A stretch of DNA of 64,000 bases from Spirochaetia bacterium (GCA_965203905.1 CBDBDQ010000005.1:1312001-1376000); one strand, 5' to 3'; counted from the stretch's first letter, positions 284-59,420 are shown. Numbers and translations are program-made. Notes: generated by a model from the letters alone, not told the origin.

Positions 284-576
284 GGCCATGACAGCCACTG
301 GCGCGAGTCGGTGTTCGGCGACGAACTGATGATCGGCGGCGCGCGAGGCGTCCGGGGTTCGAACCACTCAGCAGGGCGACCGTCGCCTCCTTGGCCGACC
401 TCGGCTATGCAGTCAATTACGCAGCCGCGGATGCCTTCCGGCTGCCGCGTCCCAGCTCCGCGCTCCGCGACGCGCTGCAACGCGGTACCATCCACTTTGC
501 CGGCGATACCTTCCCGGAACCGCCGACGGTGGTAGATCTGCCCGAGACCGTCGCCCGCGTCCTTAACCGCGACTGA
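284..576 (+). pseudogene. C-terminal fragment of a leishmanolysin-like (M8) zinc metallopeptidase, frameshifted
   Basis: DSHWRESVFGDELMIG, then in a shifted frame EPLSRATVASLADLGYAVNYAAADAF, the typical M8-like C-terminal motifs; no N-terminus. Confidence 0.7.
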
Positions 577-613
577 CCGTGCCGCATCGAAAGCACGCCC
601 CACTGATGTACAT

Positions 614-1186
614 TCACTCGCCTCGTGGTGGATCGCACCGACTCCTGTAGTCTCCAGTCGCGGATGCACTGTCCGTATTCGAATAGTCAATACGCACCAA
701 TGCATCCCGTATCTCGAATACAAGAGTCGCTTCAATCTGAGACAACTCGGCAACAAATCTCGTCACTATGTCTACGGCATCCGTCACGGCGCCACCATTC
801 TCAGTTATCCATGCTTCCTCATATATGCCGCCTTTATCAAAGCGATAACGTACGTCGATCGGATTGGCTCCGTCATAATAACTTCGAGCATCGAGATTCG
901 GTCTCATCATGATGCTATGGCGCACCTCGCCATCGCACGACAGGAACACCATATCTTGAGAGATGCGCGCCACTCTTTTGTCGAGAGACATCAGTTTCGC
1001 AGGCTCGATGCTATAACCTGGGACACAAATCAATCCGTGCGTCATCTCGTCGCTAAAACCATCGATATCCGTGAACACCTCACAAATACCGTACGACTTT
1101 ACGTCCTTTACTTCAGCCCACATAGATATCGGAGAAAGAACCAACAAAACAAGCATCGATAGTCGTCTGAAAACCGTCAACATCAT
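614..1186 (-). CDS. hypothetical secreted protein (lower GC)
   Basis: 190-aa ORF with signal-peptide-like N-terminus (LVLLVLSPISMWA) and protein-like composition. Confidence 0.7.
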   Translation of the reverse strand: MMLTVFRRLSMLVLLVLSPISMWAEVKDVKSYGICEVFTDIDGFSDEMTHGLICVPGYSIEPAKLMSLDKRVARISQDMVFLSCDGEVRHSIMMRPNLDARSYYDGANPIDVRYRFDKGGIYEEAWITENGGAVTDAVDIVTRFVAELSQIEATLVFEIRDALVRIDYSNTDSASATGDYRSRCDPPRGE

Positions 1187-1416
1187 TCAGTGCGCGAGTC
1201 TCACAGGGGCCCCGCTGCCGGTTGGGTTTGGACCTCGACATGGTGCCCTCCCGGTGACAAGTGCACTATGGGCGAGGCGCCGCCGCGCCCGCATGAGGAC
1301 GGCCCGCGCCCCGACTGGAGCCGTGTTGCTCCGAGGCACCGACCGTTGCCCTATCGGTTGGTCGCGACCCGGCCAGTCGCACGAATGAACCGCGCCGGGT
1401 ACCGCCGCTGCGTAGT

Positions 1417-1530
1417 TATATTGCGGACCGAATGCACCGCAGGATCAACAGTGGAAGCAAGGTTCTTGTGGTAGCTGGTCGTACGCCTCGCTAACTACCG
1501 ATTCGGCAGATGTCGACCGTCGTTGGCAAT
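1417..1530. repeat. ~110-bp dispersed intergenic element, copy 1, containing palindrome CTACCGA-T-TCGGCAG
   Basis: Near-identical to 7248-7375 and diverged at 4820-4900. Confidence 0.85.
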
Positions 1531-1590
1531 CGCACGTCACCCTGGAGTGCACTCAACGACAGGCCGCCTGAGGTCGACCTCCCAACTAAA

Positions 1591-4419
1591 CTAGGACTCG
1601 GACCGTGACGAGCGTGCCTCCGACACGTCCTCATAGGGTGGAAGGATCCCGCGGGCGCGGGCGCGGTGCACGGCGTCGAGGCGCCCGCGCGCACCTAACT
1701 TGGCGAAGATGCTACGTACCCGGTAACGCACGCCATCGTAGGATAGCTTGAGGTCCCACGCGATCTCCTTGTCCCGATACCGTTCGAGGCGCTCCAGCAC
1801 GTCGAACTCGCGCTTGCTGAGCGGTCGGTCCGGGACGGCGTCGGCGTCCCGGTTCATGGCCGCCCGCAGCGTAGCCGCCGCTTGGACAACGGCGACATCC
1901 GCGCAGTCGCCGGCGGCGATGTCGTCGAGTAGCGCATGGGCAGATGGTGCGCGCTCGCGGGCGAGCGGCCACCCGTAGTCGGCCCCGGCGAACAGCCGCA
2001 GAAACTCCTCCAAGTGCGCGCGCGCACGGTCTTCGTCGCCGGCCTGGTGCTCCAGCACAGTCGCCAGCGCCAGCCCCCGCATTCGCGTCCGCATGAGACC
2101 GCACTCGGCCGCGATTGCGTGCAGAGCGGCGGCGAGCTCGCGGGCGGCGTCGAACTCGCCGCGGGCGATGAACAACCGTAGCCGCGCGCAAGCGAGCATC
2201 TCGGCCTCGCGCCAGGTCTGACCTTGCAGGTCCGTGCACGCGGCCGCTTGCTCAGGCAGCCGGTCGAAGCGCCAGGCGCGGCTCGCCTCCTCGACATCGC
2301 CGGCAGCCAGCAGCACGGACACGCGCAGGGCTGCCAGCCAGCGCGTCAGCCCCGGCCGCTCGGTTCGCAGCGCGTACTCGCGCGCGTCCTCGACCAGCCG
2401 GAGCGCCTCCTGCGGATTGCCGCGCACCAGTGCAAGCTCCACCTCACCACCGATGCTCGCCGCGTATATGTCGAGCCAGGCGCCACACTCGCCGAGCAGT
2501 CGTGGCGTCAGCCGCGCGCCAGCCACGCGCGGCACTCCTGCCGAGCACTCCAGCTCCAGTTCGGCCGCCAGCACCTCTCCGATCATCACCGCCCCCGCGT
2601 CGCGAAGGTGGCTCGCCCGGGCTGCCTTCAGCGCACGCTGGTAACAGTCCCGGGCCTCCTGCGGACGTCCCATCGCCATGGCGACGGAACCCGCGTGGAA
2701 ATCGACGTGGGCCTGGTACGGCGAGCCTCGTCTGAGCGCCGCCCGGGCACGCCCTGCCCACTCGATGGACTGGTCAAATGCGGTCACGTGGTGGTAGTAG
2801 ATGCACACTCCCAGGCTGAACAATCCGCGCAGCAATGGGTCGGTGCCCGGTGCGTCCGCGATCGTCTTCGCACCCGCGATCGGGAGCGTCCCGTCGCTGA
2901 ACGGCATGCACCCGCACAGGTACTGCTGGCCCACGACAAAGAAGTGGTCAATCTGCAGGGCCCGATCGTCTCCGCCCGCGCGGTCCCGCGTAAAGCCAGC
3001 GGTCGCCGCGGACGCGGCCTGGTAGGCCCGCTTCGTGGCGCCGACATCGCCGGAAGCGGTCAGCACGATGCAATGCGCGAGCGCCAGGCGCGGATAGTTC
3101 GCCAGCACCTGCTCGCTCAGCAGCCCGTCGACCGCGCGCAACGCGTCCAGGCCCTGCTCCAGCCACAGCCTGACGCCACCGGCTCCCTCCGCGATCGGAC
3201 CGAGCAGCTCGGCGTCGCTCGCCTCCAGTGCGTGGCGCAGCGCCTCGACAGCGCGGCCGCGGCGCGCGAGCGCAAGCGCAATGCCGCGGTGGATCGCTCG
3301 ATAGCGCTGCGGGTCTTCCTCGAACCGCCGTTTCTCGCAGTGGTCCTTGATGAGCGGATGCAGCCGCATCGCCGATCGGGGCCCGGCCGTGGTCGACCAC
3401 AGCCCCGCCAGGGCCCGCAGCGACGCGAGCCGCCGTGCCGCGTTGCCCGCCCCGGTCACCTCGTCGATCAGCTCCGGGGCGACTTCGTCGAACAGCGCGA
3501 CATCAAGCACGAAGTCGCGATCCTCCGCCGAAATGCCCCGCCACAGCCGCGTCTCGATCCACCCGGCCACCGTGTCGTCGCCAGCACCGGCGCTTGCCGC
3601 CCCGTGCCGCCCGGCGTTGCGGTACATGCGCAGCGCGATGGGCCAGCCCGCCGAGTCAGCTACCACCGTCGCCAACTCCCGCCGCGACAGCCGCCGCTCG
3701 AAGAACCGGGACACGTCGCGGGCCGAAAACCGCAGGTCCTCCGCCCCGACCGTGCCACCCCGCCCTTCCAGCGCGAACATGGCGATGTCCAGGCCCGGCG
3801 GACGTTCCCGGAACGCCATCCCCACGTGCAGCGTGGGCGGCGCGTGTCGCAGCAGCGCGTTGATCACCGCGACCGCCTCCGGACTGTGCAGCCGCTCCAC
3901 TTCGTCGAGCGCCAGCACACACGGCGCACCGTGCCGCTCCAGCGCCCGGAACAGCAGGTTGAGCCGATACTCGGCTTGACTGTCCGCGGCCCGGTCCGAC
4001 TCCGCCCCGCCGGATCCCGTGGGCGCAGCCCGTTGCTCGGCCGAGTCGAAGGTCGCCACTCCGGCGCGCTCGAAAGCAAGGGCAAGATAGGCCGCCACCG
4101 ACCCCCGCCCGTCCTCTTCCTCGAGTGAAAGCCAGGCCACCGCCACGCCCCGCCGCCGCAGCTCCCGGCAGCGCTCGCCCAGCAGGGCGGTTTTGCCGAA
4201 GCCACCGGGAGCGCAGAGGACCGTCAAACGGTGCTCCAGCAGCGCGCACCGTTGCTCCACCTCCGTACGCCGGATGTAGCCCTCGATGGGATCGGGCAAC
4301 TCCACCCGGTAACGCTGCAGCCAGCGCGCCTCCTGCGGCGCCGGTTCAGGAACCCGCGCCGCGGCGGGTCTCGCCACGGACTCCGGTGCGAGCTCACCGC
4401 GGTCTCCCTCGTTCTTCAT
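1591..4419 (-). CDS. MalT-like STAND ATPase / LuxR-family transcriptional regulator
   Basis: Walker A APGGFGKT, Walker B VLALDE, GWPIAL motif, TPR-like region, C-terminal LuxR HTH (LSKREFDVL...KEIAWDLKLSYDGVRYRVRSIFAKLGA). Confidence 0.93.
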   Translation of the reverse strand: MKNEGDRGELAPESVARPAAARVPEPAPQEARWLQRYRVELPDPIEGYIRRTEVEQRCALLEHRLTVLCAPGGFGKTALLGERCRELRRRGVAVAWLSLEEEDGRGSVAAYLALAFERAGVATFDSAEQRAAPTGSGGAESDRAADSQAEYRLNLLFRALERHGAPCVLALDEVERLHSPEAVAVINALLRHAPPTLHVGMAFRERPPGLDIAMFALEGRGGTVGAEDLRFSARDVSRFFERRLSRRELATVVADSAGWPIALRMYRNAGRHGAASAGAGDDTVAGWIETRLWRGISAEDRDFVLDVALFDEVAPELIDEVTGAGNAARRLASLRALAGLWSTTAGPRSAMRLHPLIKDHCEKRRFEEDPQRYRAIHRGIALALARRGRAVEALRHALEASDAELLGPIAEGAGGVRLWLEQGLDALRAVDGLLSEQVLANYPRLALAHCIVLTASGDVGATKRAYQAASAATAGFTRDRAGGDDRALQIDHFFVVGQQYLCGCMPFSDGTLPIAGAKTIADAPGTDPLLRGLFSLGVCIYYHHVTAFDQSIEWAGRARAALRRGSPYQAHVDFHAGSVAMAMGRPQEARDCYQRALKAARASHLRDAGAVMIGEVLAAELELECSAGVPRVAGARLTPRLLGECGAWLDIYAASIGGEVELALVRGNPQEALRLVEDAREYALRTERPGLTRWLAALRVSVLLAAGDVEEASRAWRFDRLPEQAAACTDLQGQTWREAEMLACARLRLFIARGEFDAARELAAALHAIAAECGLMRTRMRGLALATVLEHQAGDEDRARAHLEEFLRLFAGADYGWPLARERAPSAHALLDDIAAGDCADVAVVQAAATLRAAMNRDADAVPDRPLSKREFDVLERLERYRDKEIAWDLKLSYDGVRYRVRSIFAKLGARGRLDAVHRARARGILPPYEDVSEARSSRSES

Positions 4420-4819
4420 CGAATGAGCGCCTTGTGTTGCGCAGTCCGCCGTCGCCGCGGATACGTGACGCGACTCAGGTCACCGGCCTCCTCCCACACA
4501 CCGACCCGAGCGTCCGCGCAGCGCCGGACGCCGTGGCGCTCCACCGCGGCCTCGATCCCTCCAGCGATCCTGCCACTCCTCCGGTCCTCCGATTGATCGG
4601 CAGTCTGGCTCGGTTTGGTGGTCAGTGTCCCCCTCGGAGGTGTTCCACGGCCGTGCAATCGACCGGGATCAAGCGGATCGAGCGTCTGCGAACGTGCGGA
4701 ATACCGGATTCTACCGCCCGACGGGGGCCGGAGCGCCTCTGGCCCCGACCGGTGCCGGGTACCGCCGTTTGTCGCGTAGTCAGTGCTGAAGGCGATGTCC
4801 GGAGCATAACCGCCGACTA

Positions 4820-4900
4820 GACGGTAGGATCAATAGTACAAGGGGTTTTTTATGGTAGCCGTCGCGAATCCCCGTAACTACTGACTCGGTAGATGTCGAT
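4820..4900. repeat. dispersed intergenic element, diverged copy 2 (palindrome CTACTGA-C-TCGGTAG), upstream of the MalT-like gene
   Basis: Shares AGGATCAA...GGTAG...TAACTAC...TCGGTAGATGTCGA with copies 1 and 3. Confidence 0.7.
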
Positions 4901-4984
4901 CACCGTGCCAAGCCCACGCCTCAGGGGCCATTCCGGCTGCAGCTCCTCGCCGAGGCAGACCGCCTTCGCAGCGAGAACCTGCGG

Positions 4985-5110
4985 GTGGATTACCATGAGG
5001 TCCGATCCGCGGCACCTGTCCGCGGACGCCCCTGCACTTCACGGCGCTGCACGAGATCGGTCACGTGCTTGGCTTCGGTACGCTCTGGGAACGCTTCGGC
5101 TACCTGCTTG
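4985..5110 (+). pseudogene. internal fragment of a leishmanolysin-like metallopeptidase (HEXXH region)
   Basis: LHFTALHEIGHVLGFGTLWERFGYLL; homologous piece at 18418-18465. Confidence 0.75.
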
Positions 5111-5278
5111 CAGGCCTTGGACCCGCTCGGCGAGTGAGCGCTTACGGCGACCCCGTATCTGTCCATGGGCGTGCGGCAAGCAGCAGAGACAAACCGCATT
5201 CGTTCTGCGCATCAGAATCGGCTCCATCCTGCGCCAAGTCCTGCGTTCCTTCACCTCCACGGATGGCCCGAGAACCTC

Positions 5279-7154
5279 TCAAGGACTCAGAAACACCTCC
5301 CTCATCCGGGTGATCGTCTCATCTTCCAACTCATCTATGGCATCCCCAATCGACTCACGTAACTTATCACGGCCCAACAGTTCCTCAAGTTTGCGAAGTG
5401 CGGTGTTTATAACTACCGCACCAGCGACAGCGCCTACTGCTGCGCCTACTGCTGCGCCGATCACACTACCTACAGGCCCGCCGGCGGCACCAGCAGCAAG
5501 ACCTGTCCCAGCACCCGCCGCCGCACCCGCCAAACGACCGAGAATCCGTCGCGCCACCGTGCGCGGCACGGCCTCAAGAAGGGCCGCCGACGCTCTTTTT
5601 ATCAATCCCTTCGCCGCAAGGCGAGCAACAACCCTCGAACCTATCACTCGACCGACTGCAGCGCCCAAAGCTGCGCCACCGGCGCTGCCCCAAAGCCTCG
5701 TCTCGAACGGGATACTCTCAGCAGCAAACGCACGAGCGAGCTCGGAAGCGGAGAGCTCCTTTGATGTCTCCAGCGGAATGCCATCTTCCACTTCAATTGC
5801 GCGCGCCTCGATAAGCCCATCGCGCTCTTCCCGAAAGCGTATTATCATTGTGTCTCACATGATCCAGAACGGCCAGCTCTGCTTCAACCCTCGCGAACGG
5901 ATCTCCTTCCATCACATACTCGAACATTCTCTCTCTCATCTTCTGCTCGTGACTTCCCTCGACCGCAGCGACAAACCGAAATACCTCCGCCGACATACTA
6001 TAGTACCAATCCAAGAATCGTGGGACGTTGTTCCTCATCTGATCGAAGGCCACTCCAAGTTCAGGCTCAATTAATTCTCTATAACTATCTGCACTTATTT
6101 CTCCGATATACGATGTCGTCTGTTCCTCCAGTTCGTGAATCATTGAGATGGTCCCAGGGCGAACCATCCTGTTCTCTACGAGTTCCACGTCTCGACGAAT
6201 GTCAAAGAACAGTAACGCGTATACGCAGCACAGCAATGTAATCGTGATAATTATTATAGATCTCTTCGGTAGCCCCGGTGGCTTCGGTACGTTCTTTGAG
6301 CTTGGTGCGATGGTGCGATTGATAAGCTCGCTTGGTCTAACCAAGAATGGAGACAATGCCGCCGTTATACTAACAAAGAACCCAAAAACGCTTAGAAAAT
6401 ATACAACTATATAGGCCAAGCGACCAACATCATCGTTTGTGCGCAGAACAGTCAACCCGAAGTCGCTCAAAGCGTTTATCGTTCTCATGATGTTGAACAA
6501 TTGCTCGACAGGCGCGCTAGATCCGGAATAGGTCGCCTGAGCTTCTATAGCGGAAGACAGGTCATTGTACCGCGGATGATCAGCACCCCAGTTATCAGCA
6601 ATACCAAATACGAGCGTAGCCACCAAGGCTGTGGTTACACTAGCGGGCACCGAGAACAGGGCGCCGCAGGCGAATGGTCTGACGCCGTTGGTGAGCAAAG
6701 GCTTTGACACATAATGCAGAAAGAAGTAGAGCAACGGTATCGACACGAGCACGGACGCCCATAGAGACCACTCCGAGCCTGGTGAGAAAGTGACTCGCAC
6801 AACCAGATAAATGGACGCCCAAACGGACAGGATCATGGCCAATACCATTCGCCACCAGTAGCCCGCCAGAAGGCGAACTAACCAACTGCGCTCTTTCAGT
6901 GCACCCTGCCAAAAAATAATGCGCGTCACCGCAGAACAATAGGCGGATATGGCAACAATCGGAATCGCGACAACGAGGCTCGACAGAAATGTCGAGAACG
7001 GTCCGAGTTTATTCAATGAATTGGAGACGGCGTACAGAATTGCCACGTATGAGATCGACAAAAACGAATACCGTATGGGCGACGAGAACGGTTGATCGAT
7101 GCTCCCATCGTCGCTCGTTGGCGTGGTATTGCTGTGCAGATCGTCGCTCTTCAC
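5279..7154 (-). pseudogene. multi-pass membrane protein with C-terminal glycine zipper, split into two overlapping ORFs (5793-7154 and 5279-5848)
   Basis: TM-rich N-terminal part with FLDWYYS motif; the overlapping downstream frame has GAAAGAG...GAAVGAAVG and looks like the continuation, implying a frameshift near 5850; lower GC. Confidence 0.6.
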
Positions 7155-7247
7155 AATGGTGTTACCCCCTCCGTCCGATAAGGCTTGCTACGGGCAGCGT
7201 TACGAGGACGCGACATCCGAAACAGTTGGGAGACGTATGGCCGGAGG

Positions 7248-7375
7248 TATATTGCGGTCCCGAGTGCACCGCAGGATCAACAGTGGAAGCAAGGTTTTTA
7301 CGGTAGCTGGTCGTACGCCTCAGTAACTACCGATTCGGCAGGTGTCGCGGGTGTCGACCGTCGGAACAATCGCAT
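7248..7375. repeat. dispersed intergenic element, copy 3
   Basis: Near-identical to 1417-1530. Confidence 0.85.
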
Positions 7376-7574
7376 GTACCCATGACCTACCTTGGAGGAA
7401 GCGGCCTTCGCGGCTCCTTTGGCTCGTAACGATCAGCCCGTCCTAGCGCCCCTACAACTGCTTCGCCAGGACGCCCTGTTTCCCCCCATGGCGATAGTCT
7501 TCCTGCCGCCGGCGACCGTCTATGCGTGGTGCTGGCGTCGGTGCAGTCAACTCGCTAAAGGCGCGAGGGGACGA

Positions 7575-7935
7575 TCGATTCCGCCGGCACCCAGACCAAG
7601 CTGGCGCTGCGCATCGCTCGCCGCTACGGCTGCGTTCTGGAGAGCACGTTGCCGATGAGCGGCAGCCTCAGCTCCCTGAGCACCGCGGCGTTCTATGCCC
7701 GAGCCGCCAAGTATCGCATCGCCAGCTACCACAACCTGCGCCGCAACCTCTCCCGGTGGTGCCGCTGGCTCTCCAACCAGGGACCGATTCTGGCACGCGT
7801 GGCGGTGGACCGTACCTGGGACCGGGCCACGCGCACCCACGGCGAGCTGGAGGTGTATCGACCGGACACCGAGCGCGGCGGGCACGCGGTGTGCCTGGTG
7901 GGATACACCGAGCACGGCTTCATCGTGCGCAACAG
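7575..7935 (+). pseudogene. internal fragment copied from the C1 peptidase gene (38854-39642)
   Basis: About 360 bp matching ~39188-39548 with about 5 substitutions by eye. Confidence 0.92.
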
Positions 7936-7955
7936 TCGGACCGGCATCGGACCAG

Positions 7956-8939
7956 GTGGACCCCGGCACGCCTGAGCCGGAGGTCAGCCGTCCGCACGAC
8001 AAGTACTTCCAGAGGGTGTTCTCCAATGCAGAGGACGCCGCCAGCCTGTTGCGCTCCTGCGTACCGGCGGCGCTCGCGCGGACGTTGCGGTGGTCGACGC
8101 TGACCCACCTGCCGGGTCGCTTCGTCAGCGACGACTGGCACGACAGCGAGGGCGACCTGGTGTTCTCGGTGCAGCGGAAGGGCAGCGACGAGGTGCCGGT
8201 GCTGGTGTACGTGGTGCTGGAACATCAGTCGACCCCGGACCGGTGGATGCCACTGCGGATGCTGAACTACTGCACGCAGGTATGGGTGGCGTGGCAGGAC
8301 AGCCACCAGCAGGAGGAGAGGTTGCCGCTGATCGTGCCGCTGGTATTCTATCAGGGAGGCCAGCGGTGGGAGTACGCGAGGGAGTTTGCGGAGCTGGTAG
8401 CGGATGCGGAGGAATGGCGGTGGGTACCGAGGTTCGAGCACCTGCTGATCGACCAGACGGAGCAGAGTCCGGATTCGGTGACCGGGGCGGTGGCAGCGAG
8501 GCTGCTGCAGATCTCGATGATGGCGAGGTTTCGGGAGGCGTCGGGCGAGCTATTGGAGCAGGCGACGCGATTGATACGGGAGTTGTACCGCGCCAGAGGG
8601 TTCGACGCAGTAGCCAAGCACGTGGAGTACGTGCTGGCGACGCAGCCAAAAGCAAACCGGAGGCTGTTTGCGGAGGCGTTGCGGAGGAACGTGCCGGGAC
8701 GGGGAGGAGACCTGATGAACTACGTTGAGGAGTTGATCGAGCAGGGCCGGCAGGAAGGCCGCCGCGAAGGTGAGCTGAAGGGCCGCCAGGAAGGCCGCCA
8801 GGAAGGCCGCCACGAAGGGCAGGTGCACACCATCGAGGGCTTCCTGCGACAGGATTTGCCGTGGTCCGCCATCGAGGCGGCTACCGGGATCGACGAGGCC
8901 GCGTTCCGGCGCCTCAAGCAGCAACTGGAACGCCGCTGA
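7956..8939 (+). CDS. rpn: Rpn family recombination-promoting nuclease / YhgA-like PD-(D/E)XK protein
   Basis: PHDKYFQRVF, SEGDLVFSV, YVVLEHQSTPDRWMPLRML, LPLIVPLVFYQG, C-terminal (EGRQ)n repeats; probable GTG start at 7956. Confidence 0.9.
   Translation: MDPGTPEPEVSRPHDKYFQRVFSNAEDAASLLRSCVPAALARTLRWSTLTHLPGRFVSDDWHDSEGDLVFSVQRKGSDEVPVLVYVVLEHQSTPDRWMPLRMLNYCTQVWVAWQDSHQQEERLPLIVPLVFYQGGQRWEYAREFAELVADAEEWRWVPRFEHLLIDQTEQSPDSVTGAVAARLLQISMMARFREASGELLEQATRLIRELYRARGFDAVAKHVEYVLATQPKANRRLFAEALRRNVPGRGGDLMNYVEELIEQGRQEGRREGELKGRQEGRQEGRHEGQVHTIEGFLRQDLPWSAIEAATGIDEAAFRRLKQQLERR
8715..8939 (+). CDS. putative in-frame internal small protein (RpnS-like antitoxin, 74 aa)
   Basis: Strong SD GGGAGGAG just before the in-frame ATG (MNYVEELIEQGRQEG...). 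Confidence 0.65.
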   Translation: MNYVEELIEQGRQEGRREGELKGRQEGRQEGRHEGQVHTIEGFLRQDLPWSAIEAATGIDEAAFRRLKQQLERR

Positions 8940-8976
8940 CGGCGGCGCCGTCCAGTTGCGCTATACGCGGGGGGGA

Positions 8977-9116
8977 GAACCAGATGCTGCGCAGGGCGCC
9001 GGGGGAGTGGATCACCGGCTCCTCGGCGAAGATCACGTCGTCCCACACGAAGCCGCCCTGCAGAGCCGGGAAGTAGCTCACCACCGCCAGTACCGCCAGC
9101 GCCGCCGGCCCGTCCT
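8977..9116 (-). pseudogene. inverted fragment of the TMTC-like TPR gene (52103-54814)
   Basis: Reverse complement matches ~52290-52432 (VVSYFPALQGGFVWDDVIFAEEPVIHSPGALRSIW). Confidence 0.9.
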
Positions 9117-9509
9117 GCTCCGGTCATCTGGGGGCCGTCGTCGCGCAGGATCTCCACCGCCGCTCCGGTGCCCAGAAACGCACCTCGCTCGCCGAGCCAT
9201 CGCCTGCAAGGACCGCTCTCACGGGGCTGGTCTTCTTCTCTCTGCTGTTTGGGCTGTCAGCAGGGACCAGGATCTCGTGGGGCAGACGGCCGCCAGGCGA
9301 TCGCGGACCACAAGGGCCGCAGGGTGGACGCGGGCCACAAGGATCACCCGGATCGGGAGGAACATCAACTTCCTCGGCGGATGGAGGTACGGCTCATCAC
9401 CGTACGCAGTGCCGATTCTCGGCGTGAATAACTCTGGCACGCTTGGCCAAGCTATCTATCAGGTCCCTGCGGATCGGCGACAAACGGGAGCGGCGGCCGG
9501 AGCAGGGCG

Positions 9510-10050
9510 GCCGTCACCCTGTGCGCCGCCCTGCTGACCGCATGCAGCTTCGAATACTCCGATGCCGACGCATCACCCTCGCAACTGCTTGAGCACATAC
9601 CGAAACCGAGCTCACCGAGGTAACCCACACCATCGTCCGCAACGGGCGCGTGGCGGCCGAGTTCCGCGCCCGGCAGGTGCGCAACTTCCCCCGCGCCGGC
9701 CGCACGGAGTTGGATGACGTGCTCTACCACGAGTACGACCGCAACGGCCTTCCGGTGACCGGCGGCAACGCCGACCGCGCCGTGTACTTCACCGAGCGCG
9801 AGGACGCCGAGGTGGCCGGCGCGATCCGCTTGCGCTCCCAGTCGCAGGGCGTCTGGCTGGAAGCCGAGACCCTGCGCTGGGAGGACGCCAGCCACCGGCT
9901 GTTCTCCGGCCCCGACGAGACCGTGGCGCTCACCCGCGACGACGGCTCGCAGGTGACCGGCGTCGGTCTCCAGGTAGACGTGTGCCGCAAGACATCCGGT
10001 TCTCGGGCCCCGTCAGCGGAACCCTGGTCGGCGAAACCGGGGCGGGGGAG
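9510..10050 (+). pseudogene. LptC-like (spirochaete-type LPS export periplasmic lipoprotein) gene with frameshifts
   Basis: LLTACSFEY lipobox, ...LEAETLRWEDASHRL...TRDDGSQVTGVGLQVD; frameshifts near 9605 and 9993 (the latter seen by comparison with the copy at 23345). Confidence 0.65.
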
Positions 10051-10404
10051 TAGGCGGAAAGCGCGCGGCGGGGGCGCGGGAGGCGGTGTGCGGCCGCTAC
10101 GGCGATCGGTCATGCGCGGCAGGCGCCTGCAACCGAACCGGGCGCCCTGGGACCGCCGGCGCGGCGCCCGCGCGGGGCGTTGCAGCCACGACCTCGCCGG
10201 GCCGTCGTGCAATAGTGCGTGAAGCCCCAGGTAGTCGAGTGTTGCTGCATTGCCCACCCCGCGCTGGCCGAATGCGACGTTGATCAGGACCTTGTGACTG
10301 CCGGCATCGCCGAGCCCGCGTATACCACACGGAACGCGCGGACTCCGAGTCTAAGGGCTGCGGGCGGAGGCGCTGCGCTGGGAGCAACGAACGCCGACGG
10401 CTGG

Positions 10405-10530
10405 TCACCGGAGCCGGTGGAGCTCTACCGTGAGAACGGCTCCGAGATGCGCGGCACCGGTCTTGAGGCGGACGTGCTCAGCAGGACGATCCGGGTCTCG
10501 GGACCGGTCAGCGGAACGGTGGTCGCCGTC
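10405..10530 (+). pseudogene. C-terminal fragment of a diverged LptC-like paralogue
   Basis: EPVELYRENGSEMRGTGLEADVLSRTIRVSGPVSGTVV, homologous to the 9900-10030 region. Confidence 0.6.
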
Positions 10531-10610
10531 ACCGCCGGCGAAGAGTCAACGATTCATTCACACGTGTGGGGTGTGAGGTCGTGTTTGGCTTCCGGAGTAC
10601 TAAAGAAGCC

Positions 10611-11282: not shown

Positions 11283-11727
11283 AGGAACAACCTCCGATTA
11301 AGTGGGATTCACGGACAAGCCCATCGATAGTCCGATAGTCGCCGTCTTAGACACGCTGCACCAGCTCCAGATAGCCGTCGATGCCGATTTGACCCGTTCG
11401 GCCAGGTAGGCCGCCGTATGGCGCCCAGGAACCCGTCAGCCAAGTCACCGCGGCAATCGCACCAACCACACTGGTCCTTGAAATGCGCATCTCTCGTCAT
11501 CCTTGTGGAGTTCCGACGGTCGATCATATTCCCGGCGTCTGCCACTCGGCAAGCTCGCGCACATGATCTCCAAGTTCATCGCCTTCCACTTCGGCGCTTC
11601 CGCGTAGTGGAGCTCGGGACTTCGGAGGCGAGCGCTCCGCGGAGTTCATCGACGACATAGCGCCTTGCGGCGTCCCTTCCGTTTTGGTGACACGCACATC
11701 GGTAGTTGAGTACGCGACGCAATTCGA

Positions 11728-13048: not shown

Positions 13049-13066
13049 CCTACCAGGATTGGTAGG
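13049..13066. promoter_or_regulatory. palindromic operator-like box CCTACCA-GGAT-TGGTAGG upstream of lipoprotein A
   Basis: Perfect 7-bp arms; identical copy at 14820-14837. Confidence 0.55.
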
Positions 13067-16642: not shown

Positions 16643-16645
16643 GCT

Positions 16646-48400: not shown

Positions 48401-48518
48401 TAGACCGGTCGATCCGACCCGACTATAAGTGGACCAAAGTGGACTCGGGTTACCGCAACTGAGGGAGCTCGCGGGGTAGACAGCGTCCGCCGGGGTGGTC
48501 CGCCGGGGTGGAAGTGAA

Positions 48519-51629: not shown

Positions 51630-52102
51630 TGCTGCACAGCCCGATGATCGACGTGGCCATCGGCCCGGTCTTCTCTACGTCTCGCTGAGCCTGGCGTGCA
51701 GCTCGATCCAGGAGATCGTCGGCGGCGTTCGGCCCGCGCTCGCGCGATCTGAGACCGGGCATCTGGGGGCATCTGAGGTCGCGGCGCTGTCCGAGCGGTC
51801 GCGGCCGGGTACGTCGGCCACCTGGCGCCGGAGTTGGGAGGGTTGCCGGCGGGAACCGGCCCCCCAAAAAAAGGAAGGACCGCCAGGAGGCCATCCCCAA
51901 CGGTCCGATCCAAAATCGAGGGGGAGGGTTCTAAGCCCCCTCTCCATAATCTTGTCGGCGGTTCCGCGGGGTTCTTGAGTGTCATGTGCCGAATGGCGTC
52001 GGCGCAGCGCAAGTAGCACTGGCGCGGGCCGCGGGCCGCCGCTTCCATGCCGCCGCTTCCCTCCGGCTGCGGGGCGTCCGTGGTATCGTTCGCGCGGCGG
52101 AG

Positions 52103-54814
52103 ATGGCGAAGCGGAAGAAGGCCAGAGGGCCGCACCACCCGAGGCCGGCCGCCGGCGCGGCGGCGGACCAGCCCCCGCAGGTGGCGGCGCCCCCGCGCCG
52201 GTCCCGGAACCGGTTCGCGCCTGGTGGGCCCGGTGGGGCGGGTTGGCCGGGTTGGCCGGCGGCATGGCTGGGGACGTTCTCGGCGCACGACGGGCCGGCG
52301 GCGCTGGCGCTGGCGGTGCTGGTGGTGGTGAGCTACTTCCCGGCCCTGCAGGGCGGCTTCGTGTGGGACGACGTGATCTTCGCCGAGGAGCCGGTGATCC
52401 ACTCCCCCGGTGCCCTGCGCAGCATCTGGTTGGCCCCCGCCGAGATCAAGAACGAGGGCCACTACTGGCCCCTGGTCTACACCAGCTTCTGGCTGGAGCA
52501 CCGGCTGTGGGGTCTGCGGCCCGCCGGCTACCACGCCGTCAACATCTTCCTGCACCTGCTCAACTGCCTGCTGCTGTGGCGCCTGCTGCGGCGCCTTGCG
52601 GTGCCCGGCGCGCTGCTGATCGCCGCGGTGTTCGCGGTGCACCCGCTGCACGTGGAGTCGGTGGCCTGGATCATCGAGCGCAAGGACCTGCTGTCGGCGC
52701 TGTTCTACCTGGGGGCGGTGCTGGCCTGGCTACGCCTGGTGGAGGTGGCGCGGGTGGGCCACTACCTGCTGCTGGTGCTGCTGTTCACGGCCGGGCTGCT
52801 GAGCAAGTCGGTGGTGGTGACGCTGCCGCTGGCGCTGCTGCTGGTGCAGTGGTGGCGCCGTGGCCGGGTGACGCGGCTGGATCTGCTGCGGGTGGCGCCG
52901 CTGATGGTGCTGGGGGCGGTGATCACGGCGGCGGACCTGGCCTTCTACCGCGGGCGGGAGGTGCTGGAGCTGGGCTACACGCTGGCGGAGCGGATGCTGA
53001 TCGCGGGGCGGGCGCTGTGGTTCTACGCCGGCAAGCTGGTGTGGCCGGTGGAGCTGGCGGTGATCTATCCGCTGTGGGAGATCGACGCGGGGTCGCTGGC
53101 GGGGTGGGGCTACGTGGCGGCGGCGGCCGGGTTGGCGCTGGCGCTGTGGCTGGGGCGGGGGCGGATCGGGCGCGGGCCGCTGGCGGGGGCGCTGTACTTC
53201 GCGCTGACGCTGGGGCCGGTGCTGGGGTTCGTGGACTACGGCTACATGCAGTTTTCGTTCGTGGCGGACCGCTTCCAGTACCTGGCGGGGATCGGGGTGC
53301 TGGCGCTGCTGCTGGGGAGCGCAGCGCACGGGATGGGCAGGCTCTCGGCCGCCGGGCGCGTGGCCGTGGGTGCTCCCGGGAGGGCGCGCGCCGAGCCGGG
53401 GGCCCGTGCTGCGCCGGAGGTGCGCGCTACTACGCCGGAGGTGCGCGCTACGCCGGCCAGGCTCGTGCGCTACGGGCAGGGGCTGCGCTACGGCGCTTGG
53501 GGGCTGGCAGTGGCGGTGGTGGTGCTGCTGGGCGCGCTGACCTGGCGTCAGGCCGAAATCTACCGCGACGAAGTCACGCTCTTCAGCCACATCGTGGCAC
53601 ACAACCCCGCGGCGCGCGACGCCCACCTCAACCTCGGCAGCGCGCTGTTCGAAGCGGAGCGGATGGAGGAGGGGCTTGCCGCCAGCCGCATCGCCGTGGA
53701 GCAGCGGCCCGAGTCGGCGGGCGCGCTGGCCAACGTCGGCCGCGCCCTGGTCTATTTCGAGCGCTTCACGGAGGCCGAGGAGCATCTGCGGCGCGCCCTG
53801 GAGCTGGACCGGCGCAGCACCACCGCGCACCAGAATCTGGCCGAGGCGCTCAGGAAGCAGGGGCGCCACCTGGAAGCGGTGGAGTCGTACCGCGCGGTGC
53901 TGGAACTCGACGCCGGGTTTGCGCTCGCCTACGCCGGCATGGGCACGGCGCTGTACGAGGCGCGGCGCTACCCCGAGGCGCTGGCGGCGCTGGAGCAGGC
54001 GCTGGCCCTGCAGCCGGAGCTGGCGGAGCGGGCCACGCTGCGTCTGTTCATGGGCCGCGCGGCGCGCGAGCTGGGCCGCTTCGAGGTCGCCGCGGAGCAC
54101 TTCCAGCGCGCCGCCGAGCTCGATCCCGACAACGTGGAGCCGCTTCTCGACCTGGCGGCCGTGCGCCGCAGCCAACAGCGCGACCGGGACGCGGAGGCGC
54201 TGCTGGACCGAGCCCGCGAGCTGCGCCCGCGCGATCCCTCGGCGCTCCACACCGTCGCCGAGGCGCTCCGAACGCAGGGCCGCGTGGAGGAGGCGATCGC
54301 CGGCTACCGCGCGGTGCTGGAGCTGGACCCCGAGTTCGCCCCGTCGCACGCCGCGCTCGGGATTGCGCTGTATCAGATGCAGCGCTACCGCGCGGGCCTG
54401 GCGTCGATGCAGCGGGCACTGGAGCTGGACCCCGAGCTGCCGGTGGCGGCCTCGCTGCACCTGTTCATGGGCCGCGCCTGGGCCGAGCTGGGAGACACGG
54501 AGGCCGCCGCCGAGCAGTACCAGCGGGCGCTGCGGATCGAGCCGCGCAACCCGGAAGTGCTCGATCACCTGGCCATGGCGCGCTTCGGGCAGAGGCGCTA
54601 CGAGGACGCGCTGGCGCTGTACCGGACGCTGTTGGAAATCAATCCCGACAATGCGTTGACCCACTCCAACGCCGGCGCTGCGTTGTATCATCTCGACCGC
54701 CCGCAGGAGGCGCTGCAGAGCATCGAGCGCGCCCTGACCCTGGACCCGGACCTGGAGATCGCCCGCACCGGCCTGGCCGAGGTGCGCAAGCTCCTGAACC
54801 AGCGCGGACAGTAG
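52103..54814 (+). CDS. TMTC-like GT-C membrane protein with C-terminal TPR repeats
   Basis: GGFVWDD, Y.PL...S, FAVHPLHVESVAWI.ERKD, ADRFQYL, >10 TPRs. Confidence 0.9.
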   Translation: MAKRKKARGPHHPRPAAGAAADQPPQVAAPPRRSRNRFAPGGPGGAGWPGWPAAWLGTFSAHDGPAALALAVLVVVSYFPALQGGFVWDDVIFAEEPVIHSPGALRSIWLAPAEIKNEGHYWPLVYTSFWLEHRLWGLRPAGYHAVNIFLHLLNCLLLWRLLRRLAVPGALLIAAVFAVHPLHVESVAWIIERKDLLSALFYLGAVLAWLRLVEVARVGHYLLLVLLFTAGLLSKSVVVTLPLALLLVQWWRRGRVTRLDLLRVAPLMVLGAVITAADLAFYRGREVLELGYTLAERMLIAGRALWFYAGKLVWPVELAVIYPLWEIDAGSLAGWGYVAAAAGLALALWLGRGRIGRGPLAGALYFALTLGPVLGFVDYGYMQFSFVADRFQYLAGIGVLALLLGSAAHGMGRLSAAGRVAVGAPGRARAEPGARAAPEVRATTPEVRATPARLVRYGQGLRYGAWGLAVAVVVLLGALTWRQAEIYRDEVTLFSHIVAHNPAARDAHLNLGSALFEAERMEEGLAASRIAVEQRPESAGALANVGRALVYFERFTEAEEHLRRALELDRRSTTAHQNLAEALRKQGRHLEAVESYRAVLELDAGFALAYAGMGTALYEARRYPEALAALEQALALQPELAERATLRLFMGRAARELGRFEVAAEHFQRAAELDPDNVEPLLDLAAVRRSQQRDRDAEALLDRARELRPRDPSALHTVAEALRTQGRVEEAIAGYRAVLELDPEFAPSHAALGIALYQMQRYRAGLASMQRALELDPELPVAASLHLFMGRAWAELGDTEAAAEQYQRALRIEPRNPEVLDHLAMARFGQRRYEDALALYRTLLEINPDNALTHSNAGAALYHLDRPQEALQSIERALTLDPDLEIARTGLAEVRKLLNQRGQ

Positions 54815-55843: not shown

Positions 55844-55844
55844 C

Positions 55845-56270: not shown

Positions 56271-56419
56271 CCGCCGCCCCCGCCGCCGCGGGCCGCCACC
56301 GCCACCGCGAGCCGCCATCGCCACCGCGAGCCGCCATCGCCACCGCGGGCCGCCACCCGGATCGCTTGAACTCTCCAGGCGATGGCAGTACGTTGCTGGT
56401 TCCTCCATGGCGCCCGACG

Positions 56420-57151
56420 ATGAGTGAACCGGAATCCGAACACCTCGATCCCGAATCCCTGGTTGCGCGCATCATTGCGGAGTTGCGGGCCAACCCGCAG
56501 GCACAACGGTTGCTGCTGCGCGCGCTGCTGACCAACGAGTTCCTCGGCATGCCGGCACGCCTGGACCGCATCGAGAAGGACGTTGCGGAACTCAAGGTCG
56601 ATGTACGCCAGCTCAAGGTGGACGTGGGCCAGCTCAAGGTCGACGTGGGTCAGCTCAAGGTGGACGTGGGCCAGCTTACGGTCGACGTGGGCCAGCTTAA
56701 GGACAATGTGGGATCGCTCAAAGGATCCGACTTGGAGGTTCGGCTGCTGCGGAGAATTCGCCCGCTGCTCAGTCAACACCTCCAGCTCAGGCGCGCCCGC
56801 ATCGTGCACAGCGCGCTGCACCAGGCCGATACCGAGTTCGATGCTACGATCGCCGACGCTGCGGATGCCGGCCGGATCAGTTCCGACCAGGAGGACCGCA
56901 TCACTGCGACCGACGTCATCATGCATGCGCAACGGAGGCACCAACGGACTCGGGTCTGGGTAGCCGTCGAAGTGGCCGGCAGAGTCGACGCCGACGATAT
57001 CAGGCGCAGCCGGGAGACTGCGGCCACGCTTGCGGCAGTGTTCGGAGAGGAGGCAATACCGGTCGTGGCGGGGTATCGGATCGACACCGCAGACCGGAGC
57101 CGGGCCGACGCCGCGGGAGTGTGCTGCCTGGAAGTCCCCGAACGGACCTAG
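56420..57151 (+). CDS. coiled-coil (LKVDVGQ heptad repeat) plus PD-(D/E)XK-like hypothetical protein
   Basis: 21-bp tandem repeats at ~56590-56720; TDVIM...VAVEVA, PVVAG. Confidence 0.8.
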
Positions 57152-57613
57152 CGATGCCGGTAGCGGCGGTCGATCTCCTCGACCACCGGGGTACGTTGCG
57201 AGATCCAGGGCCAACCCTACTGAACGACTTCTGCATCCCGTGTGGCGGCACCTGCCAGATCGCCGTCTTCAGGTGCGTGGGTTCGTTCGCTGTACGATGT
57301 GTCCAGAAATGAACGGAGCGCCGCCTCCCGCAACGCCGGTCTTCGCCGATGCATTGCTGCCACGTCGGCGCCGCCGTGCAGGATTCGCAGGATTCTGCGA
57401 AAAGTGCCAAAAAAACGCGCTAATCACTTGACGGGTTTGGCGCTGCTCATAGCGGCCTCCTGCCGCACGTTCCGGCCCCTCCGACCCTTCGAACATCCCG
57501 CCACGCCCTCCAGGACCGTCAGCACCCCGCCAGCGCCGGCCTGAGCCCTTCCAGGTGCCCGTCCCGGGACTTGCCGCAACCGGTCATTTCTCAACCATGA
57601 TTATATTTACGCC

Positions 57614-59296
57614 ATGGTTGCCGCGACCGCCACCAGCTTCTCCTCCTCCCTCTCCGGGCTCCCCGACCAGGTGCTGCTGGCGCATACCAGGTCCCTCGTC
57701 CTGCACGAGCAGGCGCTGCAGCTCGCCGTCCTCGACCACCTGCGCGAGATCCACGCCCGCCACCTGCACCTGCGCCTCGGGTTCTCCAGCCTGTTCGACT
57801 ACGCCGTGCGCGAGTTGGGCTACAGCGAGGGTGCCGCTTGGCGTCGCATAAAGGCCATGCGCCTGTGCTCCGAGACCGCCGGGTCACGCGAGCGGCTGCA
57901 GGACGGCTCGCTCTCCCTGAGCGCCGCGGCGCAGTTGCAGAACACCTTCGATCTCCTGCAGCGCACGGCCACCGCCGCCGCGGCCCCCGGCTCGGCACCG
58001 GCGGCAGCGGAGCTGCTGCCGGGCGGCACGGGTCCGGCGCCGGAGGCGGGGGCTGCGGGGACCGCGGCAGCGACGCCGGCGGGACCGGTGCCGGCGCTGG
58101 ACGCGGCGCAGCGGCAGGAGCTGGTGGCGCAGGCGAGCGGCAAGAGCACCCGCGAGGTGAAGCAGTTGTTGGCCGGGGTGGCTCCCGAGCTGGCGCGGCC
58201 GGCCGATCGCCTGCGGGCGCTGGGCGACGGGCGCTGGGAGCTGAAGGTGGCGATCGACTCTGCCTGTCAGCGCGGGATCGAGCAGCTACGGGCACTGCTG
58301 TCGCACGTCGACCCGCACCTGACGCTGGGGCAACTGGTGGAGCGGCTGGTGCAGGACGGCCTGCAGCGCTACGACCCGGGGCGACCGCCGCGCGGTCGCA
58401 GAGGCGGGAGCCGGGAGGCAAGCGCGGGCCAGGCGCCGGAGCCGAAGCCGCAGCAAGGGCCGGAAGGCGGAGCGACTTCGCCGGCGAAGCGGGACGCGCA
58501 AGAGCAACCCGGAGTGCCATCGACGCCGGCGGGCACGACCGCCGGTGGCAGCACCCCGGCGCCGGCAGCGCTGCCAGCAGAGGAACCCGCGCGCGGGATT
58601 GGCGGCGCCGGCACCTCGGCGGTGGCAGCGCTATCCGCAGAGGAACCCGCGTGCGGGATTGGCCGTGCCGGCACCCCGGCGGTGGCAGCGCTGTCCGTGC
58701 CACCGTCGAGGCGGGAGACTTGCGGCGGCAGCACCCCGGTGCGTGGCAAGCCAGCGGCGGGGGCGCCCGGCACCACTACTTCGGCGCCGAAGTTGGTGGC
58801 TGGTTGCGGGTCCCGCGCCTCCGTACCGACGCCGCCGGCAGACCAGAGCTTGCCGACCGCGCGGGCAGCGGTGGACCGCGGTCGCAGCGCTCCTTCGCCA
58901 GCGAAGCGGGCAGGGGCGGCGCAGCGGGCAGGAGCGGCGCAGCGGGCAGGGGCGGCAAAGCGGGCAGGAGCGCAGCTCGATGGCCGTTCGCGGCAGCAGG
59001 CGGCGGCATCCGACCCGTCCGCAGGCAGCGCGCAGCCGGCCCACCGGGCGCGCCGATCCCGCTACATTCCGGCACCGGTGCGGCGCGAGGTGTGGCGGCG
59101 CGACGGCGGCTGCTGCAGTTACGTCGATCCGCACAGCGGGCGGCGCTGCGGCTCCCGCTTTCTGCTGGAGCTCGACCACATCGTTCCCTTCGCGCTCGGC
59201 GGCAGCGCCGAGCCGGGGAACTTGAGGCTGCATTGTGCTGCTCACCACCGCTTCCGGCATCGGGAGCACGGATCGCCGCCAGACGGGGCCACGTGA
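57614..59296 (+). CDS. DUF222-like HNH endonuclease
   Basis: HL.EI..R.L....GFSSLFDYA..ELGYSE.AA.RRI; C-terminal VRREVW.RDGG.C...C...LELDHIVPFALGG....NLRLHC..HH. Confidence 0.88.
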   Translation: MVAATATSFSSSLSGLPDQVLLAHTRSLVLHEQALQLAVLDHLREIHARHLHLRLGFSSLFDYAVRELGYSEGAAWRRIKAMRLCSETAGSRERLQDGSLSLSAAAQLQNTFDLLQRTATAAAAPGSAPAAAELLPGGTGPAPEAGAAGTAAATPAGPVPALDAAQRQELVAQASGKSTREVKQLLAGVAPELARPADRLRALGDGRWELKVAIDSACQRGIEQLRALLSHVDPHLTLGQLVERLVQDGLQRYDPGRPPRGRRGGSREASAGQAPEPKPQQGPEGGATSPAKRDAQEQPGVPSTPAGTTAGGSTPAPAALPAEEPARGIGGAGTSAVAALSAEEPACGIGRAGTPAVAALSVPPSRRETCGGSTPVRGKPAAGAPGTTTSAPKLVAGCGSRASVPTPPADQSLPTARAAVDRGRSAPSPAKRAGAAQRAGAAQRAGAAKRAGAQLDGRSRQQAAASDPSAGSAQPAHRARRSRYIPAPVRREVWRRDGGCCSYVDPHSGRRCGSRFLLELDHIVPFALGGSAEPGNLRLHCAAHHRFRHREHGSPPDGAT

Positions 59297-59324
59297 TCGG
59301 CGCTCGCCGGGGTGCGAGTTGGGC

Positions 59325-59420
59325 GATCGGGTGGCCAGCAAGGAGACCGCCCGCCTCACGGCACCCAGACCAAGCTCTCTCTGCACATCGCCCGGTCGCT
59401 ACCGCTGCGTGTCGGAGAGC
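59325..59420 (+). pseudogene. degenerate third copy of a C1 peptidase segment
   Basis: GGCCAGCAAGGAGACCG...GGCACCCAGACCAAGCT...GCATCGC...GCTGCGT..GGAGAGC, similar to 39140-39258 with a ~30-bp deletion. Confidence 0.7.

Follow-up and report, generated by a model that had tools for sequence, protein, structure and literature searches.

Intergenic DNA in a 64-kb stretch of a Spirochaetia bacterium chromosome (GCA_965203905.1, CBDBDQ010000005.1:1312001-1376000) carries ~18 short fragments, many of which are copies of genes located elsewhere in the same stretch. We refer to the whole stretch as the window and to the fragments as shards. The window represents 0.8% of a 7,785,191-bp contig, and we view it as a recombination-scarred, pseudogene-rich part of a ~7.8-Mb chromosome. 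The explanation that we favor, held with about even confidence, is that breaks were repeatedly patched with nearby DNA, through repair or template switching, and that decay followed. The shards would be scars of illegitimate recombination in a variable region, which is a known kind of feature and not a new genetic system.

Inventory of Gene Fragments

The window was compared with itself by BLASTN at a word size of 11, the ends of matches were refined by base-level alignment that included the flanks, and protein-level mapping was added. Twelve short pairs, none of them tandem, emerge from this comparison; they span 49-458 bp and are 88-99% identical, with E-values from 7e-9 to 0 that exclude chance. 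Approximately six weaker pieces are added when nucleotide and protein comparisons are combined (Table 1). A tblastx self-comparison is dominated below ~60 bits by noise from GC composition. In other genomes, two loci of 20 kb that served as small controls gave 0 and 1 comparable matches, and the single match reflects collinear paralogy.

Self-comparison had been proposed in an earlier note on the window, where copies were placed at 7575, 16646 and 59325 (C1 peptidase), 17160 (rpn), 18466 (MalT), 8977 (TMTC, inverted), 18968 (PD-(D/E)XK), 39900 (GHL10), 13127 and 47010 (LuxR) and 16583 (an end of an IS21-family insertion sequence, or IS). All were recovered at or near these positions. The note had further portrayed the window as a patchwork of ~25 self-derived pieces that fill most intergenic gaps. 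The copies are confirmed, but their number, their coverage and the identities of some were overstated. About 18 pieces could be verified, and together they account for only ~3.0-3.6 kb, or ~15-18%, of the 20,088 bases in gaps. Coding periodicity is lacking in much of the other filler, as judged by a segmentation whose strand calls are unreliable.

Some of the proposed source genes were not recovered. Stop-free open reading frames (ORFs) from all six frames of the gaps, 296 of at least 45 amino acids (aa) and 69 of 28-44 aa, were searched against Pfam and NCBIfam. Neither set contains a match to leishmanolysin (three fragments had been proposed), to a Cre-like integrase of the tyrosine recombinase type, or to the S8 (subtilase) family, and a single weak leishmanolysin lead is provided by ORF 4999-5310 (atlas score 0.83). 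As for the presumed antidote fragment, the sole HigA match is the intact gene at 38135-38443. The mixed orientation described for the pieces applies to only two of the 13 that could be located, which are inverted relative to their partners, and the interval 18418-19125 holds three identifiable pieces rather than parts of four genes.

Two other matches were not counted as shards. A 53-nt inverted LptC-like match just past the TMTC shard (9120-9172 versus 9908-9960, 74%) is without tblastn support and may represent either another inverted micro-shard or chance similarity. An LptC-like reading of 18424-18501 (E 0.48) was discarded as chance.

Protein mapping traces the shards to at least nine unrelated genes. 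Spirochaetes are known for cassette-based variation, and shards kept as gene-conversion donors, decoys or antisense sequences in a functional silent-cassette or regulatory array might persist, as some do, at 88-91% identity. However, the multiplicity of sources, in place of one expressed gene, led us to reject a silent-cassette locus for antigenic variation. Shards are also frameshifted, repeats do not frame them, and the 105-bp non-coding repeat at 7242-7347 belongs to no Rfam family and folds no better than shuffled RNAs. We therefore find a functional array scarcely credible.

Shards Are Copies That End Abruptly

The C1 peptidase gene at 38854-39642 is full length by comparison with a conserved ~262-aa family, and the MalT, TMTC and GHL10 partner genes carry full Pfam domain sets. 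Because these partner genes are intact, the high-identity shards are copies and not moved pieces. Two C1 shards are 97-99% identical to the local gene, versus 87% for the best database relative of that gene, and the rpn shard is 97% identical to the local rpn1 gene, versus 90% to an rpn gene at another locus (L001). The intact C1A peptidase gene has no 100% match in the protein collection, unlike the Rpn1 and LptC-like ORFs of the window, and it may have been missed, or called on the opposite strand, in the source annotation.

In every pair, similarity breaks off sharply at either end, and base-level alignment detects none beyond the shard edges. At the four joints for which both sides are known, there are 0-4 bp of ambiguous overlap or short stretches of unassigned filler. 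As the earlier note had observed, no shared terminal repeat is evident; terminal inverted repeats, target-site duplications and shared boundary motifs were all absent from shard ends. The microhomology that it had invoked finds no useful support at the junctions, where shard-partner identities of 88-99% prevent anchors from being judged.

The abutting pieces at 18414-18469 and 18466-18669 copy 5015-5072 and then 4183-4386, in the same orientation and in permuted order. This arrangement is what a backward template switch, a circle or the junction of a tandem duplication would leave behind. The partners of two directly abutting pairs are only 0.63 and 2.6 kb apart, a proximity with a joint chance of ~0.002 within the window. 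About 10 shards have their partner inside the window, although it makes up so small a part of the chromosome. A single large duplication would require shards and partners to be collinear, which they are not, since the partners are scattered over 4-52 kb. Given this lack of collinearity, together with one permuted pair and two inverted pieces, we rejected the possibility that the fragments are remains of a few large tandem or segmental duplications, the alternative that the earlier note had raised against itself. The piece at 13127, and possibly C1 shard II with the rpn shard, are exceptions.

Several shards carry their own frameshifts or indels, which argues against an assembly artifact. The nearest named relatives of the window are metagenome-assembled genomes (MAGs) labeled Spirochaetia or Spirochaetaceae, and the window may itself derive from a MAG, a setting in which chimeric joins or collapsed strain variants might arise. 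However, shards differ from their partners by 1-11%, whereas mis-joins of the same molecule would be identical. Moreover, the pieces are only 54-366 bp long inside a 7.79-Mb contig, and truncated LptC-like copies appear independently on the contigs of relatives. An artifact is thus very improbable.

Break Repair versus Deletional Decay

According to the explanation that we favor, double-strand breaks or collapsed forks would have been healed by end joining or template switching, with repair stitching in short copies (~50-450 bp) of DNA located a few to tens of kilobases away. Several pieces may sometimes have been joined in one event, and breaks might have been concentrated around the three Rpn-family PD-(D/E)XK nuclease genes of the window, which are ORF-sized modules in their own right and from which shards also derive. 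Ordinary decay would then be superimposed, in the form of frameshifts, deletions, insertion and loss of an IS21 element, and tandem duplication. The copies, their intact partners, the abrupt ends, the lack of terminal repeats, the permuted pair and the position of partners within the window are shown directly, and a break as the trigger, the choice of repair pathway and any participation of Rpn nucleases are inferred. We likewise infer that the shards are insertions, as opposed to residues of deletion.

The main rival, which is a real possibility but a less probable one, is pure deletional decay, in which complete extra copies, present either as segmental duplicates or as mobile modules nested in one another and belonging to multi-copy families, were trimmed by many independent deletions without any capture. 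Families with several copies, such as Rpn, C1 peptidase, LptC-like lipoprotein and LuxR, are indeed represented among the shards. Three Rpn-family genes occupy the 64 kb, relatives harbor many Rpn paralogues together with truncated forms, and intact and truncated LptC-like sets are found on other contigs and elsewhere in the genome. The pseudogene load is also heavy, as illustrated by a kinase gene split by IS21 and by an rpn gene (rpn2) that lacks its core.

Several pieces, some of which fit this rival well, weigh against capture as a general explanation. The copy at 13127-13191 is the edge of a tandem duplication (11694-13191/13438-14959, 83%). The IS21 relic at 16583 has as its outer edge a true IS terminus, flanked by sequence unlike that beside the resident copy, and on its inner side it adjoins C1 shard II. 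Because it starts exactly at the terminus and in a different flank, IS21 must have inserted at 16583 and later been deleted from 60 bp inward, an ordinary history of insertion and internal deletion. The LptC-like sequence at 9459-10050 corresponds in tblastn to aa 3-202 of P0241, a full-length relative of 202 aa, and contains two frameshifts, so that it represents an entire gene undergoing decay in situ and not a captured fragment. The LptC-like shard at 23343-23798 is 96% identical in amino acids to P0241, which is on another contig, versus 88% to the local copy, and hence was not derived from a local source. A further LptC-like half-copy (P0281) is located elsewhere in the genome, and locality therefore fails for some pieces.

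C1 shard II and the rpn1-like shard follow one another in the same order and orientation as the composite of C1 shard I and rpn1 (7574-8948), and one duplication of this composite, with internal replacement, may have yielded both. The range of identities (88-99%) implies that not every event was recent, and the pieces may in truth derive from paralogues that have since been lost. Differences at codon positions 1/2/3 number 22/14/36 in shards, a skew similar to that of functional controls (42/18/57 and 41/38/63). Finally, when events rather than pieces are counted, only 8 of 13 are near an Rpn-family gene (P 0.054). Short-patch capture of local DNA, as the earlier note had interpreted the pattern, thus gives way to other explanations for 13127, the IS21 relic, two LptC-like pieces and perhaps the C1 shard II/rpn pair, and is supported elsewhere by intact partners, abrupt joints, non-collinearity and partners inside the window. 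Its observation is real in part, and its interpretation is supported in part.

After subtraction of these ordinary pieces, ~8-10 still call for duplicative, homology-independent joining. The remaining set comprises C1 shard I, the TMTC, MalT-like, 5015-type, gene X, GHL10, Trans_reg_C and LytTR shards, the LuxR shard near 47 kb, and the LptC-like shard at 23 kb. To produce such pieces, deletional decay requires near-identical full copies of the MalT-like (2.8 kb), TMTC (2.8 kb) and GHL10 (1.3 kb) genes, all of which appear to be single copy. These extra copies must have been scrambled into ~3 kb and each cut on both sides, leaving zero residual similarity past any shard edge. C1 has no database relative above 87%, so its lost twins must be very recent. 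A single deletion also cannot give the permuted pair. This pair, the nearby partners of abutting pairs and the LuxR shard that jumps between micro-pieces favor multi-piece copying over serial deletions.

Members of the LptC-like lipoprotein family (P0241-P0285) are 174-202 aa long and carry a lipobox. On the contigs of relatives, intact copies occur together with truncated or frameshifted ones, whereas the genome of the window has only broken copies among the matches listed, including P0281 outside the window. The latter half-copy, and the intact and truncated sets on other contigs, indicate that the making of shards in this family is not limited to the window.

Rpn-Family Genes in the Window

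The rpn1 gene is a bona fide member of the Rpn family. Its 12-nt (4-aa) repeat array comprises 6.2 copies (8745-8818) that are of GRQE type in translation. It lacks ~4 N-terminal codons at the joint with C1, and the start codon is retained in its nearest relative, at L001. Similarity to this relative (87% in nucleotides) is limited to 7937-8948 in an otherwise unrelated context, and rpn1 behaves as a discrete, ORF-sized module. The rpn2 gene is missing ~53 aa that span the PD-(D/E)XK nuclease core but has retained its C-terminal domain, which bears the repeats, and could be what is left of an rpn gene reduced to an antitoxin-only (RpnS-like) form. Gene X is probably a third Rpn-family, or PDDEXK_2-type, nuclease gene to judge from its concordant clusters, with a TIGR01784 match (16.2 bits, E 0.007) under the cut-off, no Pfam match, and no significant BLASTP similarity to rpn1. 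A scan for Rpn1 in a genome collection, to which the genome of the window does not belong, returned four loci.

An Rpn-specific process would attribute the patchwork more directly to these genes, if Rpn nucleases or mobile Rpn modules break DNA in cis or carry their flanks with them. We consider this unlikely, despite several suggestive features. Twelve of 17 patches are within 2 kb of an Rpn-family gene, compared with 36% of gap bases (P 0.004). Homology between rpn1 and its nearest relative stops within ~10-20 bp of the gene ends, two shards are themselves Rpn-family pieces, and one end of the gene X shard coincides precisely with the boundary of the X module, matching the X/LptC-like joint at 23343-23348. 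Kingston et al. (2017) proposed that Rpn cleavage can feed template-switch joining, or 'microhomology-mediated sequence assembly', and the assembly of genome islands (PMC5350276). Zhong et al. (2023) suggested that duplicated rpn genes may be generated by recombination for which RpnL is the initiator, and described 4-aa (12-nt) repeats that vary and are situated towards the C-terminal end of Rpn proteins (PMC10400941).

Conversely, the clustering is marginal at the level of events, as given above, and there is some circularity in the test, given that the patches themselves account for the large size of gaps near rpn genes. Two other rpn loci (L001 and L002) have unrelated flanks and zero self-derived patches, which leaves Rpn causation unproven. 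The catalytic core is absent from rpn2, the native start of rpn1 has been lost, and the pieces have neither terminal repeats nor target duplications. Thus, the suggestion in the earlier note that Rpn and HNH nucleases possibly drive the process is circumstantial, with a moderate clustering. The link to Rpn is positional only, and the data are compatible with the proposal of Kingston et al. without showing it, so that we would give this connection a low probability. The array-bearing rpn1 belongs to a family that is proposed to take part in RecA-independent template-switch joining and in the origin of duplicated rpn genes and small homologues. The passages on such joining in PMC5350276 and PMC10400941 do not tie a natural footprint of it to Rpn, and the link at the window is again one of position.

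A broader version, equally doubtful in our judgment, holds that, in this spirochaete-like lineage, Rpn genes act clade-wide as local break-makers or ORF-sized mobile modules. The breaks would be healed with short copies from up to tens of kilobases away, leaving a RecA-independent record, and chimeric reading frames may be created beside toxin-type nuclease genes. Truncated LptC-like and Rpn copies on the contigs of relatives hint at a clade-wide process. Should the Rpn link hold genome-wide, it would provide a genomic footprint for the long-debated 'recombination-promoting' activity; should it fail, the window is a variable region of an ordinary kind, rich in pseudogenes.

Relation to Known Systems

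The capture of DNA fragments by nonhomologous end joining (NHEJ) has been described in bacteria under laboratory conditions. At an induced break in Streptomyces ambofaciens, NHEJ was reported to leave endogenous inserts that ranged in size from 30 bp to 18.8 kb, and two of the three short inserts had originated close to the break (Hoff et al. 2018, PMC5869714). Fragment capture through NHEJ has likewise been described in Sinorhizobium meliloti (Dupuy et al. 2019, PMC6379672). The window resembles these reports in its short and often local copies of self-DNA, its blunt or low-microhomology junctions and its intact donors, the reported sizes extending from 30 bp to kilobases. Two hallmarks of fragment capture are present: the source is left intact by pieces 88-99% identical to it, overlaps at four joints are 0-4 bp, and terminal inverted repeats and target-site duplications are absent. 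The published cases are single induced laboratory events, whereas the window holds about a dozen natural events in 64 kb, some of them multi-piece. By analogy, capture by an NHEJ-type repair may have operated here. General Pfam and NCBIfam scans detect neither Ku nor LigD in the window or the four rpn1-related loci.

Chains of short templated pieces also arise in eukaryotes, through replicative template switching (fork stalling and template switching and microhomology-mediated break-induced replication, FoSTeS/MMBIR) and through gene-fragment capture by Pack-MULE and Helitron elements. As in these systems, pieces in the window abut, derive from nearby and are sometimes permuted or inverted. 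Unlike the eukaryotic Pack-MULEs and Helitrons, which have defining ends, the shards show no such ends. SPDIR (double illegitimate recombination of short patches) similarly integrates ectopic intragenomic DNA without long homology, but it produces micro-indel replacements anchored at microhomologies. The pieces in the window are insertion-like and 54-456 bp long, reaching ~450 bp as insertions, and at 88-99% identity their microhomology anchors are neither demonstrable nor open to judgment.

Two classes of mobile structure were rejected. Transposons, miniature inverted-repeat transposable elements and IS cargo are inconsistent with the lack of shared ends and target-site duplications; the sole transposase in the window is that of IS21 (34030-36361), and plasmid and phage similarity searches with two patch clusters gave no match. 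An integron cassette array is contradicted by the lack of an integrase domain in 54 + 365 ORFs and of any recurrent boundary motif.

Among spirochaetes, Casjens et al. in 2000 reportedly depicted the plasmids of Borrelia as a genome in flux. Delihas (2009) writes of a 'genome in flux' with regard to these plasmids, in which fragmented genes abound within extended intergenic stretches (PMC2674063). Long intergenic regions, many fragmented genes, pieces of paralogous families and a spirochaete host are common to both cases. The Borrelia replicons are low-GC linear or circular plasmids, whereas the window is part of a high-GC chromosome in which many shards are copies of single, intact genes located within a few kilobases and are loosely associated with Rpn genes.

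Break capture of short self-DNA has been shown in the laboratory and rarely documented as an accumulated natural pattern. For bacterial chromosomes, our literature search found nothing closer to natural accumulation of self-derived patches than Borrelia, Francisella plasticity and an endosymbiont, and otherwise eukaryotes or organelles, which is not proof of absence. The dozen or so scars would offer naturally occurring material for studying how intergenic DNA of bacteria is reshaped, and chimeric ORFs are seeded, by repair that is independent of homology. The window combines sources that are local, a multi-piece joint in permuted order and nearby Rpn-family nuclease genes.

Gene Content of the Window

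Genes were mapped by Pfam and NCBIfam profile searches of the ORFs in the window, and are listed with the shards and joints in Table 1.

Table 1. Shards, joints and genes of the window (nt, nucleotide identity; aa, amino acids or amino acid identity)
Feature	Position	Strand	Partner or match	Remarks
105-bp non-coding repeat	7242-7347		1411-1515, 90%	
C1 peptidase shard I	7574-7939	+	39187-39552, aa 112-232, 98.6% nt	Adjoins rpn1; Pfam C1/C39 on ORF 7559-7954
TMTC shard	8969-9122	-	52440-52281, aa 116-154, 91%	Inverted; 6-bp deletion
LptC-like lipoprotein pseudogene	9459-10050	+	P0241, aa 3-202	Full length; LptC Pfam and TIGR04409 matches
LptC-like copy, second	10267-10545	+	P0241, aa 95-202, 38%	Older, strongly decayed
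LuxR gene end copy, 65 bp	13127-13191	-	Last 65 bp of gene 14895-16037	
IS21-family end relic, 60 bp	16583-16642		36469-36529, 91.8%	Inverted copy
C1 peptidase shard II	16643-16831	+	39087-39275, aa 80-141, 96.8%	
rpn1-like shard	17157-17417	+	8291-8550, aa 109-198, 96.9%	1-bp frameshift; PF04754 on ORF 17116-17448
5015-type shard, 56 bp	18414-18469	+	5015-5072, ~90%	HExxH-type motif in one frame; adjoins MalT shard
MalT-like shard	18466-18669	-	4183-4386, aa 11-79 of gene 1591-4419, 95.6%	
Gene X shard	18970-19130	-	23188-23348, 95%	51 bp upstream and first ~36 codons
LptC-like shard	23343-23798	+	9743-10187, 88.6% nt	aa 100-197, then out-of-frame tail
LytTR C-terminal shard	27555-27623	+	aa 314-336 of gene 20929-21960, 70% aa	Inverted
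LptC-like micro-shard	28763-28838	+	23576-23629, 87% nt	aa 178-201
Trans_reg_C shard	30355-30495	-	31178-31277, 80% nt; aa 385-427 of kinase/regulator gene 31160-32443	Pfam E 5e-9
GHL10 shard	39849-40161	+	aa 201-294 of gene 40340-41665	Core 39903-40161 versus 40988-41249, 90.5%; frameshift
LuxR shard	47013-47114	+	49473-49700	Three near-identical collinear micro-pieces; 110-bp and 23-bp skips
C1-like piece, 62 bp	59359-59420	+	C1 peptidase, 82%	63 bp downstream of HNH-domain gene 57614-59296
Partner locus of pair 18414-18669	4183-5072			Segments 629 bp apart, order opposite to pair
Joint C1/rpn1	7935-7940			Both genes broken: C1 without last 90 bp, rpn1 without start codon
Joint rpn1/TMTC				20 unassigned bases between
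Joint IS21/C1	16642/16643			
Joint 5015-type/MalT	18466-18469			
rpn1	7956-8939 (module 7937-8948)	+	PF04754, E 6.5e-38, 130.8 bits (cut-off 21)	TIGR01784, 60.5 bits (cut-off 52.1)
rpn2	17503-18333	+	PF04754, E 3.5e-16	Profile positions 90-196 only; 37-38% aa to rpn1
Gene X	22299-23348	-	Atlas 0.97	20 concordant Rpn-family clusters
MalT-like regulator	1591-4419	-	Pfam/NCBIfam	Full domain set
C39/C70-like peptidase	10611-11282	-	Pfam/NCBIfam	
Two He_PIG genes	Within 1.75-kb tandem duplication		Pfam/NCBIfam	
LuxR-type regulators	14895-16037; 48495-49724		Pfam/NCBIfam	
LytTR regulator	20929-21960		Pfam/NCBIfam	
GT22 glycosyltransferase			Pfam/NCBIfam	
HigA-type antitoxin	38135-38443		Pfam/NCBIfam	
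C1A peptidase	38854-39642	+		Intact; partner of C1 shards I and II
GHL10 gene	40340-41665			Full domain set
Autotransporter	42058-46734		Pfam/NCBIfam	
TMTC-like TPR/PMT protein	51986-54814			Full domain set
HNH-domain protein	57614-59296		Pfam/NCBIfam	

The window is GC-rich and uneven, ranging from 56 to 74% across 2-kb bins. Islets of 38-50% GC at 1-320, 601-1240, 10540-10700, 16800-17080 and 60050-60370 are set in surroundings of ~66% GC and resemble foreign or non-coding filler; one islet, at 16832-17156, separates C1 shard II from the rpn shard. Scans for tRNA genes and Rfam families in the window gave no match. PADLOC detected zero defense systems there, and the label 'defense island' is therefore unsupported.

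The resident IS21-family element (istA/istB, 34030-36361) interrupts a hybrid histidine-kinase/response-regulator gene, whose N-terminal part is at 36467-37669 and whose C-terminal part runs from 31160 to ~32380. An inner repeat of the IS21 end sequence is present at 32392-32421 (element region 32392-36529). A tandem array of 3.6 copies of a 342-bp unit (32698-33937), with no recognizable coding content, is apparently cargo of this element.

Repeats also mark the autotransporter gene, where an array of 54 copies of a 9-bp unit, together with 12/18-bp repeats (45182-45825), lies just 5' of the beta-domain. The HigA-family antitoxin gene (TIGR02607, E 2.6e-23) is intact and ends a two-gene pair (37833-38443), in which the 101-aa ORF located 5' of it has no family match and may encode the toxin. 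The 1.75-kb He_PIG tandem duplication (11694-14959) retains 83% nucleotide and 72% amino acid identity, and the He_PIG domain is common to the duplicated genes, to 19259-20827 (itself an internal repeat) and to 27729-28646. Lastly, ORF 23714-24415 covers aa 1 to ~216 of a LuxR-type regulator, its N-terminal half, and is 42-45% identical to the genes at 14895-16037 and 48495-49724. Because it lacks the helix-turn-helix domain, this ORF represents a truncated LuxR-type paralogue.

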